The notes beneath the pieces were generated by a model. That model saw only the letters and a program-made list of their open reading frames with translations, did not search any database and was not told where the DNA came from. From Nitrospirota bacterium (GTDB taxonomy: Bacteria; Nitrospirota; Thermodesulfovibrionia; Thermodesulfovibrionales; Dissulfurispiraceae), in NCBI GenBank assembly GCA_963710375.1, contig CAVPZX010000002.1, positions 1-64,000 on the forward strand: a DNA stretch of 64,000 nt, given 5' to 3'. The position numbers and the translations under genes are program-made. Of the stretch, positions 11,316 to 24,928 are shown piece after piece. The number at the start of each line of letters is the position of its first letter. Position 1 is the stretch's first letter.

Positions 11316-12371
11316 ATGAAAGCAAACAGGTTTTACTTCATTGTCATGCTCGCCATCACAGCAGGTCTGGGATACCTGACTTTCCAGATACTGAGGCCGT
11401 TTATTGCGTCGATAATGTGGGGCATTGTCCTGTCTATAGTTTTCTATCCCGTATACAACTACCTTGGAAGATACCTTAGATGGAAATCATTGAACTCCTT
11501 TATCGTCCTTGTCATTATCATTGCAATTATTATCGGCCCTTTTTCGTATTTTTCATACCTCTTGATAGGCGAATTACAGGATATTTCACACCATATGAGC
11601 ACCGGGAAAATGGAATTGCTGCATGATGTCATGAGTTATCCCGCAGTGCAATATTCGCTGGACTGGATAAGCACTATCTTCAATCTTCCATTTAGTGAAG
11701 CAGATATAGAAAAGACCCTTAGCGATAATGCCCTACTGATGGGGAAGGATTTAATTGGCAGGATCCCCAGCGGCCTGGGCAGCGTAGTCACTGTCTTAAT
11801 AAACTTTATCTTTATGGCATTGGCCATATTTTTCATGCTCAAGGATGGAGCTGCCTTTCTCCGGAAGAGCCGTGATTATATGCCGTTTTCAGAGCAGCAG
11901 AAAGAAAGACTCGCCTCACAGATCAGGGACATTGTCATTTCAACAATTTACGGCGGCGTGCTTGTTGCGGTCCTGGAGGGAATAATAGGAGGCATAGCCT
12001 ATTCCGCACTTGGACTAAGGTCGCCGGTCTTATGGGGGGCGGCTACTGCTATTTCATCGTTCATCCCGATGGTGGGCTCATTTGCTGTATGGGGAGGCAT
12101 AGCGTTATATTTGTTTGTCCAGGTGTCTGTCATGAAGGGAGTCATACTTGTGCTGATAGGCATATTCGGCATCAGCCTTATTGACTATGCCCTCAGGCCG
12201 GTGCTGATAGGCAGCAGGACCAGAATGCCTGTAATAATTATTTTCTTCAGTGTGCTCGGCGGCATCAAGTTTTTTGGCCTGTTAGGGCTCATTATGGGAC
12301 CTCTTGTGGTGGCCCTCTTTGTGTCTGTCATGGATATTTTCAGAAATATTGAAACAGACAGAACTGCCTGA
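11316..12371 (+). CDS. AI-2E family transporter
   Basis: Multi-TM; FFMLKDG, LRPVLIG, GGIKFFGLLGLIMGP. Confidence 0.9.
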   Translation: MKANRFYFIVMLAITAGLGYLTFQILRPFIASIMWGIVLSIVFYPVYNYLGRYLRWKSLNSFIVLVIIIAIIIGPFSYFSYLLIGELQDISHHMSTGKMELLHDVMSYPAVQYSLDWISTIFNLPFSEADIEKTLSDNALLMGKDLIGRIPSGLGSVVTVLINFIFMALAIFFMLKDGAAFLRKSRDYMPFSEQQKERLASQIRDIVISTIYGGVLVAVLEGIIGGIAYSALGLRSPVLWGAATAISSFIPMVGSFAVWGGIALYLFVQVSVMKGVILVLIGIFGISLIDYALRPVLIGSRTRMPVIIIFFSVLGGIKFFGLLGLIMGPLVVALFVSVMDIFRNIETDRTA

Positions 12372-12508
12372 CTTGTTAAACCCTCTTCCTCGCTTGCATT
12401 CGAACTATTACCGATGTCTTCGATCCCGACAGTAATACAGCTATAAAACTGGCTGTCTCCGCTTCTCCAGTGTGTTATACTATAGAGAGACTGAGAAGGG
12501 AATATTTT

Positions 12509-13213
12509 ATGAATATTGTCAGCTCAAGGCTGCTCAGAATAGTATTTTTAACCTCCGTCGTAAGCATTATATCTGGTTGTGCAACACCTCAATATAACTA
12601 TATGCCTCAAAAAATCGAAATCAGTGAGCCCCCCTTAGGGAGCATTAATACCACATATATTGGTGACAGCATGCTTAGACAAGGGAATTTTACCGAGCAT
12701 GACGCCATATATCTGGAGTCGGACCAGAAAATAGGTTCGGCTTATATCTTGGAAGAAGGCTATTATCTCAAACAGGGAGGAGATGAGAATTCGGATTTTT
12801 ACAAGCCGGGCCGCGACCCGGACAGTGGTTTTGTTGATCAAGCGGGTACAGCTGATCCATGGCAAAGCATACAGGCATATAAAGACAGAAAAAAACTTTG
12901 TGTAGTAACAGTGTTTAACTTGCAAGTTTGCAACCCAGACGCGTTATTTAAGAGAGAGAAAAAGCTCATGGTACGAGCTGACTCATTTCAGCAAACCTTG
13001 ATTTACAACGGTAAGGTTGGGAATAAAATAAATGTTGCATATCGTGAATTTTCCGGTAATTTAGCCCTTCCTGCATTTAATAACACAGTTGAATACGATC
13101 TGAGCGGGTCAAATATTATCGGATATAAGGGAGCAAGGATCGAGGTTATAGAAGCCACAAACGAGTATATAAAGTACAAAGTCCTTTCAACTTTCAATAA
13201 GGCGAATTTCTAA
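12509..13213 (+). CDS. Conserved hypothetical lipoprotein
   Basis: Signal peptide with lipobox ISGC; C-terminal SFQQTLIYNGK...YREF...VEYDL...GYKGA. Confidence 0.75.
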   Translation: MNIVSSRLLRIVFLTSVVSIISGCATPQYNYMPQKIEISEPPLGSINTTYIGDSMLRQGNFTEHDAIYLESDQKIGSAYILEEGYYLKQGGDENSDFYKPGRDPDSGFVDQAGTADPWQSIQAYKDRKKLCVVTVFNLQVCNPDALFKREKKLMVRADSFQQTLIYNGKVGNKINVAYREFSGNLALPAFNNTVEYDLSGSNIIGYKGARIEVIEATNEYIKYKVLSTFNKANF

Positions 13214-13220
13214 ACTTCAG

Positions 13221-16200
13221 TGTAAATTTAATCATAAACTGATGAGAATTGTAAGCATAAACTGGCCAGAATACCCCAAATACAGATGTTTTAACGCCGA
13301 CTTTTTACACCCTTGTAAGCATAATTTGGCCAAAAGCCTATGAGTGTAAATTTATAGAAGATAAAACAGGAGCTATCTGGCAAAGTTAGGTCCTGTGTTA
13401 CTTCCCACTTGCACATTGCAAAGTCTTTGCCCGTAAGAATATTTTCTACTCCTTCCTGTTATCCGCAAGTTAAGATTGCTGCAACTGTATGAACGTTTCA
13501 CCTGGAATCAACGTTCCACACCTCTCGGCGATATTGTTAGTTTTTAAAAATAACTGTGAAAGCCAGGCTGCGTAAGACATCCCTGAAACAAATAATGGAG
13601 AGGTAAAAGTAGCGTAGCTAAACTCTGGTCAAAACAACTCTATGTTGGCGCAACGATGATTGATGGACTCTCTCTTTCCGTGTTATGCTTTTGCTAAAAT
13701 GAATAAGTCTTTTTCATTTAGTGATTTATCCCTAAAAAGCAAAATCACCGGCATGGTGCTGTTTCTTTTTTTGTGCAGCATCTGGGCGCTGACGTTCTTT
13801 ATTTCAAATCGATTGGAACATGAAATGGCCGCGCAGTTGGAAACACAGCAGTTCTCAATAGCATCATACATTGCCGATAGTATTGAGAGCCAGGTCAAAT
13901 TTCGTATTAATTCGCTGACGCACATTGCTAACATGATCACCCCTGAACTTGTAGCCAACCCCGACAAACTAAGGAAGTTCCTCCGTGACAAGCCTTTGTT
14001 GGCAACTCTCTTTCAAACCGGGGTTGAGGTTATTTCCAGGGAAGGCATAGGAATTGCCGATTACCCTATATTACAGGGGCGGGCAGGTTCATCACGTTCA
14101 GAACTCGAATATTTTAAAGAGGTGGTCACTACCGGAAAACCGGTGGTGGGAAAGCCCTGGATAGGTCTATTTTCAAAAAAAACTGTCATTTCTTTTGCCG
14201 TCCCTGTTCTGAGCCCATCAGGCAAGCTTATCGCTGTGTTGGCAGGTTATACATTGGTATCCGACCCGGCGCTTTTGGGTTCAATCGAAAACGCTGAATA
14301 TAAAGACTTCCTTGACAGACTCCTTTTGGTATCTCCCAAGTATCGCATTTACATCACCGGTAGTGATCCGACGCGGATAATGAAGCCAACACCAAAAATT
14401 GGCGTTAACCCTTTGTTCGATCGGTTTATGTCTGGGTTTGAAGGCTCAGGAATCTCCGTTAATTCAAGGCATATACGAATGCTTATGTCCGCTAAGCACA
14501 TACCAACTCCAGGCTGGTTTATCCGGGTAGGGTTGCCGGCAGAGATCGCATTCTTGCCGATTCGTTCAATGAGGAATTGGGCATATTCCATAGCGTTAGG
14601 GCTATCACTACTAAGCTCTTTGCTTGTATGGCTAGTTATCAGGCAAGCACTACTACCACTCTCTACCGCAAGCAAACTAATAAAAGATATTACCGAGGAA
14701 CGGTTACCGCTACAGGATATACCTGTTACTCAATATGATGAGGTTGGTCAGCTGCTCAGCAGCTTCAACATGCATCTTAATTTCCGCAAACTGGCGGAAG
14801 ATGCTCTCCATAAATCAGCGATGGAAATTGAAGACCTCTACAATAATGCCCCATGCGGTTATCACTCTTTGGACAAAGACGGCGTCTTCCAGCGAATCAA
14901 CGACACCGAACTTGCGTGGCTGGGCTATACAAGGGACGAAGTGCTCCGGCGAATGAAGTGGTCGGATGTAATCACGGCCGCTAGCTTGAGGAGCTACCGG
15001 GAAAATTTCCTGCAATTCAAGGAACGGGGATATATCCGCGACCTTGAATACGAAATGGTTCGTAAGGATGGCAAGGTGTTTGTCGGACTTCTAAACGCTG
15101 TTGCCCTCTATGATCCCGACGGTAATTATGTTGCAAGCCTGGGAACTTTAGTAGACATCACGGAGCGCAAGAGGGTTGAAGAGGCATTACGAGAAAGCGA
15201 AACTAAGTTCAAGACAATGGTGGAAACATTACCACTGGCCGTATACTTGAATGTTGGGATAGAACAGAAAGGCGAATACTTAAACCCCACGTTTATCAAA
15301 TTGTTTGGTTATACCATGGAGGATGTTCCGAGTATTTCGGAATGGTTGCCGCTGGCCTATCCTGATGAAATCTACCGGAGACAACTCTCGGAGGAATGGA
15401 CAAAAAGGGTTAAGCGTTCGATAGAGACCCAATCGCCCATCGAGCCGATGGAATCCGTAGTTACCTGCAAGGACGGATCGAAGAAAAATATCTTGTGGGG
15501 TTTCATTACCATGGGAGACAAGAACTACGCCTACGGCATTGACCTGACTGAGATCAAGGAGGCAGAGAAGATGATGGCTCACCTAGCTGCCATTGTGCAG
15601 AGTGCCGAAGATGCGATTATCAGCGAAGACCTGAGTGGTATCATCGAGACATGGAACGTGGGGGCCGAGGAGATTTTCGGCTATACGGCTCAAGAGATTG
15701 TTGGCAAGCATATCTCGGTCCTGCTCCCGCCTGGCCACACGGATGAGATCCCTGACATTCTTGGGAGAATTTCGACGGGTGCGAACATTGAGAACTTCGA
15801 GACAGTGCGTATGCGAAAGGATGGCACTTTGATACAGGTTTCTCTCACATTCTCGGCTATTAAAGATGAAAACGGCAGAATTGTGGGTGCATCAAAGATA
15901 GCGCACGACATCAGCGAAAGAAAACGGATAGAGACCGAGCGGAACAAGCTAGTAGTTGATCTGCAGGAAGCACTCGCCAAAGTAAAGCAGTTATCGGGAT
16001 TATTGCCGATATGCGCTTCTTGCAAGAAAATTCGTGATGATAAAGGTTATTGGAAGCAAATAGAAACGTACATTACCGAACATTCCGAGGCCCTGTTCAG
16101 CCATGCAATCTGTCCTGAATGCGGGAAAAAACTGTATCCTGAATATTACGATAATGTATGGGGGAAAGAAGATAAATGACATGCTAAAAAGCTCTGTTGT

Positions 16201-16675
16201 GTTATTTGCGGCAGGTAACAATTTTTAAGAATCGACCACGCTTTTACGATCACCATCAAAATACTGATTGTTCAGAAATTTTTCTTGTTGCGGGACAGTT
16301 CCAACTCGAGAGTTTTTGGGAGAAGACTGCAGTCGAGGGATGAGCGCTTCCGCATGTACTCCTCAATAGAGTTGCGTGAATCCTAAACTACTTGTTTTAA
16401 GTAGTTATCCTTGTCAACTTCGACTCCCTGATACTCTCAATTAGTCGGTGAATCAAACTTACGGAAGGGGCCGCATGTCACTGTTCATTACTTGGTGAAA
16501 CCGAAGTTCTACTGTCTTATCTATTAGGGATGGCTAAAACCCAACCGTTAATAGTTATACCATAAATCCAAAGTAGGTGGTGCAAGCTGGAGATTCACAA
16601 AATGTAAGCATAAATTGGCCAAGGTAAAATGTTACCATAAACTGGCCAAATGGCCATTTTATGCTCGGAATGACA
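13221..16675. mobile_element. Non-autonomous Tn7-like (TnsB-family) mini-transposon
   Basis: TGT..ACA termini, TTCAG direct repeat at 13216-13220 and 16676-16680, repeated AAGCATAAAYTGGCCA-like sites at both ends, no transposase. Confidence 0.85.
13660..16179 (+). CDS. Membrane sensor: Cache + HAMP + 3 PAS + C-terminal Cys/His domain; no kinase domain
   Basis: Two TMs, DEVGQL, PAS/PAC motifs (DITERKR, WNVGAEEIFGY), C-terminal LPICASCKKIRDDKGYW...SHAICPEC. Confidence 0.85.
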   Translation: MMDSLFPCYAFAKMNKSFSFSDLSLKSKITGMVLFLFLCSIWALTFFISNRLEHEMAAQLETQQFSIASYIADSIESQVKFRINSLTHIANMITPELVANPDKLRKFLRDKPLLATLFQTGVEVISREGIGIADYPILQGRAGSSRSELEYFKEVVTTGKPVVGKPWIGLFSKKTVISFAVPVLSPSGKLIAVLAGYTLVSDPALLGSIENAEYKDFLDRLLLVSPKYRIYITGSDPTRIMKPTPKIGVNPLFDRFMSGFEGSGISVNSRHIRMLMSAKHIPTPGWFIRVGLPAEIAFLPIRSMRNWAYSIALGLSLLSSLLVWLVIRQALLPLSTASKLIKDITEERLPLQDIPVTQYDEVGQLLSSFNMHLNFRKLAEDALHKSAMEIEDLYNNAPCGYHSLDKDGVFQRINDTELAWLGYTRDEVLRRMKWSDVITAASLRSYRENFLQFKERGYIRDLEYEMVRKDGKVFVGLLNAVALYDPDGNYVASLGTLVDITERKRVEEALRESETKFKTMVETLPLAVYLNVGIEQKGEYLNPTFIKLFGYTMEDVPSISEWLPLAYPDEIYRRQLSEEWTKRVKRSIETQSPIEPMESVVTCKDGSKKNILWGFITMGDKNYAYGIDLTEIKEAEKMMAHLAAIVQSAEDAIISEDLSGIIETWNVGAEEIFGYTAQEIVGKHISVLLPPGHTDEIPDILGRISTGANIENFETVRMRKDGTLIQVSLTFSAIKDENGRIVGASKIAHDISERKRIETERNKLVVDLQEALAKVKQLSGLLPICASCKKIRDDKGYWKQIETYITEHSEALFSHAICPECGKKLYPEYYDNVWGKEDK

Positions 16676-16689
16676 TTCAGATTCGCTGT

Positions 16690-17529
16690 TTATGATGGTT
16701 TTTTATCCAGGAGCCGCATGAGTCCGATAAAGTCATCATCCCCCCAACCGGCGGACATTCCCTGGTCATAGATTTTTTTTAGATGCCCGGTTTGTTCGAG
16801 TGACACTGACAGCTCGACAGCGGTCTCCAATGTCAGACGAAGGTCTTTATCCATATTCTTGAGTGAAAACTGCGGCGTGTAATCGCGCTGACGCAGCTTG
16901 GGTTCTTTAAGATCCGAAACGCCGGAACGTGCAGCATTTCGAGCCAGCGCATTGAAATAGACTTCATCCGGGATCCCCTCTGCCCTGCACAAAGCCAGGC
17001 TCTCGCACAAAGTTTGGGCCACGCCGGCAATGTTCAAATTCATTGCAAGCTTCAGCGAAGAGGCTGAACCCAGCGGCCCGATATGGATAATGGCACTGGA
17101 TATAGGTTCGAGGATTGGGCGGGCCTTTTCGACGACTTCCGGTATCCCACCAAGATAATAAACGGTTTGGCGCTGCTGAGCCGCAAGTTTGCTTCCTGTA
17201 AAGGGAGCTTCCAGGAACAATGCACCGGTCCGCTCCACCTGTTCGGCAAAGAGTCGCGTCCATTTGGCGGAAATTGTGCTGGATTGGATCACCAATACCC
17301 CGCGGCCGAGCTTGAGTTGAATTTTGTCCAGAACAGACTGCACTGCAGGAGGGTCAGTGACGACGATGAAGATCACCTCCGCTCCTTCTACCGCCTCCTC
17401 AATAGTTGCGTAAAAATTGGGGAAATCTTTTGGCGTCCGGTTCCAGCATCGCACGGCATGGCCATCGGAGATCAGATTTTTCGCCCAGGCGCTACCTATA
17501 ATGCCCAACCCCAAGAATGAAATTTTCAT
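16690..17529 (-). CDS. NAD(P)-dependent oxidoreductase, 3-hydroxyisobutyrate dehydrogenase family
   Basis: FLGLGIIG, WNRT, EAPFTGS, KLAMN, KDL. Confidence 0.9.
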   Translation of the reverse strand: MKISFLGLGIIGSAWAKNLISDGHAVRCWNRTPKDFPNFYATIEEAVEGAEVIFIVVTDPPAVQSVLDKIQLKLGRGVLVIQSSTISAKWTRLFAEQVERTGALFLEAPFTGSKLAAQQRQTVYYLGGIPEVVEKARPILEPISSAIIHIGPLGSASSLKLAMNLNIAGVAQTLCESLALCRAEGIPDEVYFNALARNAARSGVSDLKEPKLRQRDYTPQFSLKNMDKDLRLTLETAVELSVSLEQTGHLKKIYDQGMSAGWGDDDFIGLMRLLDKKPS

Positions 17530-17671
17530 TTTTTATCGTCCTTTCTTAAACGGATTCGAATTTGTTGCGTGAAGTGAGTTTGACATGGAAGTATATAGTT
17601 TCTGTTCATCTCCGCAAATTATATCATACCTTTGCACCATGATTAACAGATAATTTATTGTCCTTGCCCCT

Positions 17672-19186
17672 TTATTTGAGTTCTATCGCTTTCACCTTCT
17701 TCAGTGCTATCCAGTCCTTCATATGACTCAGGTTGTCGCTGAGATCCCACCAGCCATTCTTAAAGGTAGAATAATCGGGAGCTCCGGTCATTGCTGAGGA
17801 ATATCTTACAGAATTACTGTAAAAAAGCCATTGCTTCACCCACATCTTTTCTATTGTTTCATCAAAGGGGTTTGTCTTGTCCTCTATCCCGGAAGCCCAG
17901 GCGTCAAGCACAAGCTTTGTAGCCGCGAGGGTCATTTCGTTCGTCTCTGTTATCGTGCTTGCGAGTTTCTCAAAGTGGCCGTTTATCCAATCGATGTTGT
18001 GGCAACTGTTACAGACACATTTCATGGTATTCATTCTTTTTTCCTGTTCGGATATGTCGATAAGATACTTAGATGCCGGCTCACCTGTGAAGGCGGTCGG
18101 CAGCGGCAGACCGTCCTTGTTCCGGATGATCGTTGTATCTCCAGACTTGGGCTGGGGATGGCTGTAAACAAGGCCAAACAACCTGACCCAGAGTCTGGCG
18201 CCGAAGTCATGCGTTCTTTCTGCGATCACCTTGCCATCGATAGAGACGATGAGGCTGTTGTGGCATACCGCACAGGCTGGTGCTTTAAAGTCTTTTCCGA
18301 CTGTCCAGGGCACGGCATTAAACTCCCACTCATGTTCCTTGGAGAACAAGATATCCCCATGTTTGCTCTCCGCATAGACATCCCAGGCAGGTGTGTCCGG
18401 CTCCAGATGGCATTGGGCGCAGGTATGAGGCTTTCGGGCGACCTCTATAGAAAAGCTGTGCCTCGGATGACATGCCGAGCATGAACCTCTGCTGCCATCA
18501 GGGTTCTCCCTTCCCACCCCCTGATTCGGCCAGTTGGTAAGGTCAGGGAACATCAGCTCCCCCATCTTGGTGTTCACCTTTTTCATTCCTCTTGACTCGA
18601 CCCTTGTTCCGTGGCATCCGAGGCATGTCTCGTGGAGTGTCTTGTCCGAGGGTTTCTCTGATACCATTTTTCCGTTCGCTATCTTCTCAAGACCGTCCAC
18701 AGTGTCAACTAATTCATGATAGACGGGGTTCTCCATAAGGTTCTTTATGGCATAGGCCTTTTTGCTGCCCGAGAATTGATTTACCTCAACAGGGTGGCAG
18801 GTCTTACAGTCATTCGGAGAAACAACCACATTTATTTTAAATCCCATATGATCAAAATTATCTTTGTGCTTTTCAGGGTTCTGGCCGTGGCATTCATAGC
18901 ATCCGACAGCGTATTTTGAAAATTCCTTAGGCAACCTGTCCGTCGAGATCCTCCGCTCAAGAACACCCTTTTTCATGGCATCTTCGGGTTTTGTTCTTGA
19001 GTGCCTGCTCGAAAGCCAATCCTCGACAATCCCGGGCGTGAACATTTTATGGCAAGCTATGCAGGCCTGTGTCTGTGGGCTCAAAGGAGCCCCGGGCTCA
19101 TTCTGTTTTTTTTCTGATGCGATGCCGAAAGTTGCAAAGAAAACAACGGCCAAGAAAGTTACGCTGAACCTGATTATAGGTGCCAT
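17672..19186 (-). CDS. Octaheme cytochrome c, hydroxylamine oxidoreductase-like (epsilon-Hao type)
   Basis: Eight CxxCH motifs, signal peptide, WPNQGVGR-NPDGS-GSC, YAESKHG. Confidence 0.85.
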   Translation of the reverse strand: MAPIIRFSVTFLAVVFFATFGIASEKKQNEPGAPLSPQTQACIACHKMFTPGIVEDWLSSRHSRTKPEDAMKKGVLERRISTDRLPKEFSKYAVGCYECHGQNPEKHKDNFDHMGFKINVVVSPNDCKTCHPVEVNQFSGSKKAYAIKNLMENPVYHELVDTVDGLEKIANGKMVSEKPSDKTLHETCLGCHGTRVESRGMKKVNTKMGELMFPDLTNWPNQGVGRENPDGSRGSCSACHPRHSFSIEVARKPHTCAQCHLEPDTPAWDVYAESKHGDILFSKEHEWEFNAVPWTVGKDFKAPACAVCHNSLIVSIDGKVIAERTHDFGARLWVRLFGLVYSHPQPKSGDTTIIRNKDGLPLPTAFTGEPASKYLIDISEQEKRMNTMKCVCNSCHNIDWINGHFEKLASTITETNEMTLAATKLVLDAWASGIEDKTNPFDETIEKMWVKQWLFYSNSVRYSSAMTGAPDYSTFKNGWWDLSDNLSHMKDWIALKKVKAIELK

Positions 19187-24484: not shown

Positions 24485-24928
24485 ATGTCAGAGGATGTTG
24501 AAGAAACTCGCAGTGTGCTGATAATGCAGGATACGTATAAAGCACCCCAGCCGCTAAAGCTTTTTCCGGAGAAACTATTTTATAAAATAGGAGAGGTCAG
24601 CAGGGTTGTAGGTGTTGAATCGTATGTGCTGCGTTACTGGGAGACAGAGTTCTCTTTTCTTAATCCGAGAAAGAGCAAGTCGGGACAAAGGATCTATGCG
24701 AAAAACGATGTCGATCTTATACTGAAGATTAAACACCTTTTGTATGAGGAAAAGTATACGATAGACGGTGTCAGGCGCAAGCTCGGAAGTGATGCTGAAC
24801 AGCAAAGTCCGGTAGACGGCCAGGCAGACCCAGGAGTAACCGCTGAAGCTGCTTCAGACACTCAGAATATCCTCACTATGGTAAAATCGAGGCTTAAAGA
24901 AATACTCCATCATCATTTCGGGGCGTAG
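24485..24928 (+). CDS. MerR family transcriptional regulator
   Basis: KLFYKIGEVS...VLRYWETEF; conserved ihfA-merR-tRNA-Pro context. Confidence 0.9.
   Translation: MSEDVEETRSVLIMQDTYKAPQPLKLFPEKLFYKIGEVSRVVGVESYVLRYWETEFSFLNPRKSKSGQRIYAKNDVDLILKIKHLLYEEKYTIDGVRRKLGSDAEQQSPVDGQADPGVTAEAASDTQNILTMVKSRLKEILHHHFGA

Follow-up and report, generated by a model that had tools for sequence, protein, structure and literature searches.

Element and its ends

The 3,455-bp element described here lies in a 64,000-nt stretch of contig CAVPZX010000002.1 of a Nitrospirota bacterium (the window), at positions 13221..16675. Its sole long open reading frame (ORF) encodes a predicted Cache-PAS sensor. The element sits between two convergent genes, 7 bp past the stop codon of the upstream gene and 14 bp ahead of that of a dehydrogenase gene (Table 1), and in the reconstructed empty site a 16-bp gap separates the two stops. 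The cis-acting features of a Tn7-like transposon are present: a TGT tip at 13221 and an ACA tip at 16673-16675, site arrays at both ends, and a 5-bp duplication. The original prediction, made from the sequence alone, had proposed these tips, a length of 3455 bp, TTCAG on both sides, and a landing 7 bp past a stop in a convergent gap of ~16 bp. All of these coordinates were borne out.

Table 1. Features of the element and its surroundings (positions in the window)
Feature	Positions	Strand	Basis
Target-site duplication TTCAG, first copy	13216..13220	+	sequence
Target-site duplication TTCAG, second copy	16676..16680	+	sequence
End whose three sites all face inward; cores 13233-13245, 13256-13268, 13320-13332 (nt 13, 36, 100 from tip)	13221..13332	+	
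End whose terminal site (core 16663-16651) faces inward and whose two inner sites (16636-16648, 16609-16621) face outward (nt 13, 40, 67)	16609..16675	-	
Cargo ORF, 839 aa: predicted membrane anchor, dCache_1, three PAS, short Cys-rich C-terminal domain	13660..16179	+	
95 bp with 77% identity to non-coding sequence that precedes an IS110-like ORF (contig C6)	16494..16589	-	
Flanking gene outside the element: 247-aa protein, lipobox-like start, patchy in relatives	12470..13213	+	
Flanking gene outside the element: NAD-dependent 3-hydroxyisobutyrate-dehydrogenase family; 3' end faces the target-side end	16690..17529	-	

Six CATAAWNTGGCCA-type sites were found in total, all within the two element ends. 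A site scan confirmed the predicted CATAAA core, which begins at nt 13 counted from either tip. Further sites proposed near 13250, 13314, 16603 and 16630 are likewise present, but the outward orientation of those at 16603 and 16630 had been overlooked. These inner sites point against the terminal site of the same end, such that its first two sites form a head-to-head pair. Both predicted ends are also real, but by the convention of the fused-TnsAB clade discussed below the end at 13221..13332 is the right end, and the one at 16609..16675, previously named "right", is the left, target-side end. At up to 3 mismatches, the 19-nt site has five matches in the whole genome, and four of these lie in the element ends. 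A matrix scan of the host assembly (3.19 Mb, 9 contigs, 98.8% complete) revealed strong site clusters at the two element ends only; the matrix was derived from the element's own sites, making the scores of those sites circular.

Searches with 10 Tns proteins (tblastn) detected no tns gene or remnant inside the element (best E 0.094), in agreement with the tns-free interior that had been predicted, and no cas genes lie inside it. None of TnsB, TnsC, TnsA or TniQ, the proteins that mark an autonomous Tn7-like element, is encoded. The element is a non-autonomous derivative of Tn7-like transposons and no autonomous member. As it contains no transposition genes, its transposition, whether past or potential, likely depends on enzymes of another element.

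Clade assignment

Sites in two orientations at the left end are a published signature of the tRNA-homing clade with a fused TnsAB (PmcCAST/McCAST), which includes type I-B2 and I-D CRISPR-associated transposons (CASTs) (Hsieh & Peters, PMC9881144). The left end of the element has this signature, with an inward site at nt 13 and outward sites at nt 40 and 67. The same 13/40/67 spacing is found at the left end in genome G062 (L040/L090), which is 88% identical over 67 bp. At the opposite end, the spacing of the element (13/36/100) resembles that of the far end of the autonomous relative L075, with sites at nt 13, 36 and 101 that differ from those of the element by 1-2 of 13 bases.

L075 is an example of an autonomous CATAAWNTGGCC-type set and encodes TnsABCD. 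Its TnsAB matches PDB chain 9bw1_M, of 898 residues, with 1049 bits over residues 23-862. As PmcTnsAB constructs end at residue 898 (PMC11915506), we took 9bw1_M to be PmcTnsAB. The original assignment as Tn7-like and non-autonomous thus stands, and the end layout and the relatives allow a narrower placement, in the fused-TnsAB (PmcCAST/McCAST-type) branch.

Relatives of the element

Species-representative genomes were scanned for the head-to-head site pair, which revealed 96 loci from many phyla, 16 of which comprise only about 600 bp or less. With either orientation allowed, the tip at the exact offset was TGT in 51 and TG in 77 of the 96 loci. Within the phylum, 19 of 401 genomes match the pattern (up to 2 mismatches), compared with 0 for a reversed-pattern control. 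Among the 68 genomes of the family, G062 is the only one besides the host with the site.

Flanks of the 77 TG-tipped loci were classified by regular expressions made for this analysis. A tRNA or tmRNA ends 5-40 nt outside 27 of them (26 at 24-32 nt), while the others comprise a T-arm-like flank (1 locus), a dnaN-like-3'-end motif (12), a Chloroflexota motif (8), abutment on another end (4), too little flank (1), and unclassified flanks (24). The original prediction had staked its case on TnsB-family elements carrying these end motifs. Such elements exist: tns matches occur at 10 of the 96 loci, 9 of which have a TnsAB ORF together with TnsC (a Pfam search covered 5 of these 9 ORFs). In autonomous members, the distance from the left end to tnsD is at most ~90 bp, and that from the right end to tnsAB at most ~250 bp. 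A metagenome scan added 39 loci, 36 of them TG-tipped, with no tns match at any of the 39, mostly on short contigs.

A matching 5-bp duplication was identified at 9 of 18 candidate far ends from the 77 loci (expected 0.018). Three of these nine complete elements encode TnsAB and TnsC, with TnsD in L075 and L118, and without TnsD or tniQ in L076. The other six have no tns match and are hereafter called minis: L083 (249 bp), L111 (335 bp), L060 (363 bp), L127 (1745 bp), L052 (2004 bp), and L092 (8269 bp). One more mini, L150 (2383 bp), came from the 39 metagenome loci. Tns-free elements of this type are spread over several bacterial phyla. Five mini-bearing genomes were tested for a transposase; two encode TnsAB 80% and 65% identical to that of L075, and the other three do not. 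Mini L083 shares its genome with the tns-bearing L063, and the two have near-identical left ends. This pair shows one mini with a matching helper in its own genome.

Other observations concern the wider set. Tips of TGA or TGC occur in 27 of the 39 metagenome loci (e.g. L147-L185), several of which adjoin another end as tandem stacks. In family f31 of the phylum, such ends occur in 12 of 28 genomes, with a maximum of three per genome, and tRNA-Pro, tRNA-His or tmRNA is a frequent neighbour. Acidobacterial L072, L094, L101, L107 and L135 on one side and L056, L088, L102, L106, L119, L126 and L128 on the other share the motif ATGCC.ATGCG, which is located at a dnaN-like 3' end and, in reverse, at the beginning of a second gene (names of genes were read from the flanks). 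A literature search turned up no paper specifically on attachment at dnaN. Chloroflexota members (L074, L083, L093, L100, L111, L118, L120, and L139) lie ~40 bp past a shared GTGCCCCCCTCA hairpin motif, itself no tRNA, and several of them are gene-less minis of 249-367 bp. The idea of a Mu-like phage end was dropped; two viral scans yielded 0 and 5 single-site matches.

Insertion site

Gene order around the insertion is not conserved in congeners, six of which have the dehydrogenase gene with other neighbours, while congener G002 has the upstream gene. In G002, a single GTCAG follows the stop codon of this gene. The next 8 bases agree with the reconstructed empty site at 6 positions and with the element at 1, after which similarity fades. 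Short as this stretch is, the junction supports an insertion at this site. The outcome agrees with the expectation, set in advance, that a relative without the sensor should show a single junction copy, here (G/T)TCAG with matching sequence beyond it. The proposed search for an empty allele was answered by halves: G002 provides an empty-site-like junction, but the exact junction did not turn up.

No tRNA was found at the insertion site, the nearest in the window being at 24918. The tRNA-homing members of the clade have their left end at a constant, small distance beyond the 3' end of a tRNA gene, which is not the case for this element. The closest ends, in G062 (L090) and L153, and the more diverged one in G080 (L195) lie 6-9 bp past tRNA(CAT) (9 bp in G062); the G080 element has tniQ, tnsD and an interrupted tnsAB. 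For these three ends, this would imply a recognition distance shifted to 6-9 bp from the usual ~25 bp. The host's own tRNA(CAT) copy is unoccupied. The insertion site is likely an off-attachment landing rather than the tRNA site used by the closest relatives.

Two explanations of the site were rejected. In-register mimicry of a tRNA was not above chance (P 0.23-0.85), and a new attachment site at the dehydrogenase gene found no counterpart, with an end beside the orthologous gene in 0 of 7 relatives. The original prediction had also raised programmed target choice. In the host assembly, no CRISPR array (exact-repeat scan), cas1, or DevR-type cas7 was found, other Cas7 families not having been searched, and programmed targeting is thus unsupported. 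The site likewise offers no tRNA, and the neighbouring gene has no second insertion in the 7 relatives.

Helper candidates

The host assembly has two tns operons. One belongs to a resident element at C2:840451-870566, located behind tRNA-Asn, with a CTGTT duplication, a fused TnsAB, and TnsC. The reading frames of its TnsAB and TnsC are uninterrupted, with the conserved acidic residues retained, while its tnsD is split over two frames by a frameshift. The end layout is two-orientation like that of the focal element (nt 14/42/70 and 13/36), but each of its seven sites has 4-6 of 13 bases changed relative to the closest focal site. Immediately beyond the resident element, at C2:870572, lies an older left end, which has yet another (third) site variant and for which no partner was found.

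A TnsAB homologue occurs in 4 of the 68 family genomes, and none was found in G062. TnsAB of G012 is 71% identical to that of the resident, with which it groups in the TnsAB tree (100/100); deeper branches are weak, and no donor is therefore named. The G012 left end lies on another contig, linked only by the split tnsD, and its sites differ from the focal ones by 0, 3 and 1 bases, the first being identical at 13/13.

A gyrB-linked tnsA-B-C-tniQ element was rejected as helper, having separate TnsA and TnsB and inward-only sites that differ at 3-5 of 13 bases. This element (C2:1001932-1025780; L026, L027) starts 12 bp past the gyrB stop and encodes tnsA, tnsB, tnsC and tniQ separately. Its outer flanks both read CATGCT (six bases, or five plus one), and a second left-type end lies at 1022341, which suggests putative tandem insertions at the gyrB site. 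Lone TGT-tipped ends with a gyrB-element-like site were also seen at window position 2816 (minus) and at C3:2249 (minus), both 2-3 kb away from where an insertion sequence breaks the start of the contig.

Origin of the element

We favour, with a probability of roughly 0.6, the insertion of a fused-TnsAB-type element without transposition genes by TnsAB-TnsC from another element, now absent or distantly matching. TnsAB would have bound the six sites and cut at TGT/ACA, and the joining of the ends across a 5-bp stagger would have left TTCAG twice; the scar is observed, and the chemistry is taken from the family. With its TnsAB-TnsC machine supplied by another element, the cassette would have landed off the attachment site, and today it is likely stranded. 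We infer TnsAB binding and cutting, the origin of the cargo, and the off-attachment targeting. Movement of the 3.5-kb form itself, the case of a resident helper included, carries about the same probability. Several observations count against our preferred account. The element is single-copy, without siblings elsewhere in the host genome, and no TnsB with matching ends is encoded in the assembly, such that neither of the two finds anticipated by the original prediction was made and its picture of a trans-mobilised cargo shuttle is not shown. The terminal site at 13233 is off consensus (CATAAACTGATGA) and has drifted. Gene order in G002 differs beyond ~15 bp, and the exact empty allele has 0 matches in metagenomes. 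The clade assignment depends on end layout and on relatives retrieved by the site pattern of this same analysis. Finally, the duplication cannot separate a jumped mini from a full element that lost its middle. It is indeed possible, though less likely, that an entire transposon of the TnsAB clade landed here and that an internal deletion then removed its tns genes and other cargo, in which case the 3.5-kb form has never moved. The single copy and the drifted terminal site would fit such trimming, as would an interior that is a mosaic of dispersed host repeats and a fragment like an insertion sequence, and the same-ended G062 element with other cargo in a genome where TnsAB was not found. However, neither end adjoins a tns remnant, though autonomous members have tnsD and tnsAB close to their ends, five of the six sites and the duplication are intact, and duplication-flanked complete minis are common in the family.

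For the insertion by borrowed enzymes that we prefer, the simplest assumption is a helper that was lost or only passed through. The resident element behind tRNA-Asn is a possible helper, though an unlikely one. It shares the end layout and has open TnsAB and TnsC ORFs, its frameshifted tnsD would send cargo to unselected sites such as this one, and its orthologue in G012 is apparently paired with an end bearing the focal site; L076 illustrates a complete TnsAB+TnsC element without tniQ. Against it stand the differences at all seven sites, given that diverged TnsB sites separate type I-F CASTs into groups that do not cross-mobilise, if not always fully (PMC9723613), and a tnsD frameshift that may be recent or an assembly error. 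A sequence-specific selector seems less likely still, whether in the form of a TnsD that mistook a tRNA-like word at the 3' end of the dehydrogenase gene for its target, or through a new attachment site at that gene. The focal target-side flank and the host tRNA(CAT), the neighbour of the G062, G080 and L153 elements, have a 10-mer in common (P 0.003 for that tRNA, 0.11 across all 45 tRNAs), and the family uses non-tRNA motifs elsewhere. Yet this 10-mer occurs four times in the host genome, is not conserved in the G062 and L153 tRNAs, and is offset by 13-15 nt from the expected register, although the distance at which TnsD acts is fixed (PMC11837452); the lack of ends beside orthologous dehydrogenase genes also speaks against a selector. 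RNA-guided targeting by the Cascade of a helper is very improbable: the clade does contain CASTs (PMC9881144), but the assembly lacks the array and cas genes sought, allowing that arrays can be lost in assembly. These targeting alternatives are not exclusive, being compatible with either movement or trimming in place. A broader and speculative idea, which we think improbable, is that one site shared across phyla by TnsABs ~30-35% identical defines a pool of transposase-less cassettes (249 bp-8 kb) for any passing or resident TnsAB-TnsC, and that here the selector-less resident put a host signalling gene into an ordinary intergenic gap.

Cargo and flanking genes

A domain search detected no kinase or cyclase domain in the cargo protein. 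A paralogue in the same genome (C2:615242-616344) is 78% identical over the first 1.1 kb, and most congeners carry 68-81% matches to the cargo gene; the cargo thus likely derives from the Cache-PAS repertoire of the host lineage. Its Cys-rich C-terminal domain (window 15940-16176) recurs on response regulators and on GAF, MASE and Cache proteins, as well as in stand-alone proteins of 75-95 aa, and has no Pfam family.

The non-coding interior of the element is a patchwork of repeats present elsewhere in the host genome. Window positions 13352-13491 and 16366-16454 match two dispersed repeats. The interior pieces flanking the cargo form an imperfect inverted pair, and are adjacent to each other at C2:638996-639089. 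The IS110 label of the C6 ORF in Table 1 was assigned by eye from the beginning of the ORF rather than by a family search. Outside the element, the 247-aa flanking protein has no Pfam or NCBIfam match, and homologues of its gene in 301 genomes of the class are distant and partial. Window positions 12000-18000 contain no Rfam match to a structured RNA, and a promoter scan remained below shuffle level.

Comparison with known systems

The clade is already known, as is its end layout, and trans-mobilisation has been proposed for degraded members (PMC11837452). PmcCAST (type I-B2), McCAST (type I-D), and non-CRISPR tRNA-homing fused-TnsAB relatives have the two-orientation target-side end and 5-bp duplication in common with our element (PMC9881144). 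Relatives with the element's site sequence encode TnsAB close to 9bw1_M, many of them ~25 bp past tRNA genes. Unlike the PmcCAST/McCAST group, the element lacks tnsAB, tnsC, tnsD/tniQ and cas, is not at a tRNA, and resides in a host that is no cyanobacterium. Degraded array-targeting TnsAB elements, for which movement in trans was proposed but not shown, belong to the same clade and similarly have intact ends and no working transposase (PMC11837452). Those elements retain tnsD along with broken tnsAB and tnsC, are devoid of cargo, and are present in several identical copies, whereas ours shows no trace of tns genes, has a gene of host type as cargo, and is present once. Cargo surveys of Tn7-like elements begin from tnsB (PMC8649781), leaving tns-free elements such as this one uncounted. 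In the literature searched (few subscription papers), we found no dedicated report of tns-free, cargo-bearing Tn7-like members; the "nonautonomous" of one preprint refers to TnpB elements.

The PmcCAST-type end layout extends far beyond cyanobacteria. By itself the single element is a modest finding, and the larger value lies in the family-wide pool of minis, with tns genes absent from 6 of 9 complete elements in this small sample. Natural minimal donors of 249-363 bp and apparent non-tRNA target motifs offer ready tests of end requirements and TnsD retargeting. Were the cassette-pool idea true, it would mean natural untargeted gene shuttling by a strictly homing family, invisible to tnsB-anchored surveys.

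Prototype Tn7, Tn6677, and engineered mini-Tn7 donors have TGT/ACA tips, site arrays, a 5-bp duplication, and cargo between cis-acting ends. End sites of the Tn7/Tn6677 type are described as single-orientation (PMC9881144). The element is unlike them in the outward-facing inner sites at its 16675 end. Miniature inverted-repeat transposable elements (MITEs) and Tn3-derived miniature elements similarly consist of ends without a transposase, moved in trans and sometimes with passenger genes, but belong to other transposase families with symmetric terminal repeats. In place of such repeats, our element has asymmetric arrays of TnsB sites.

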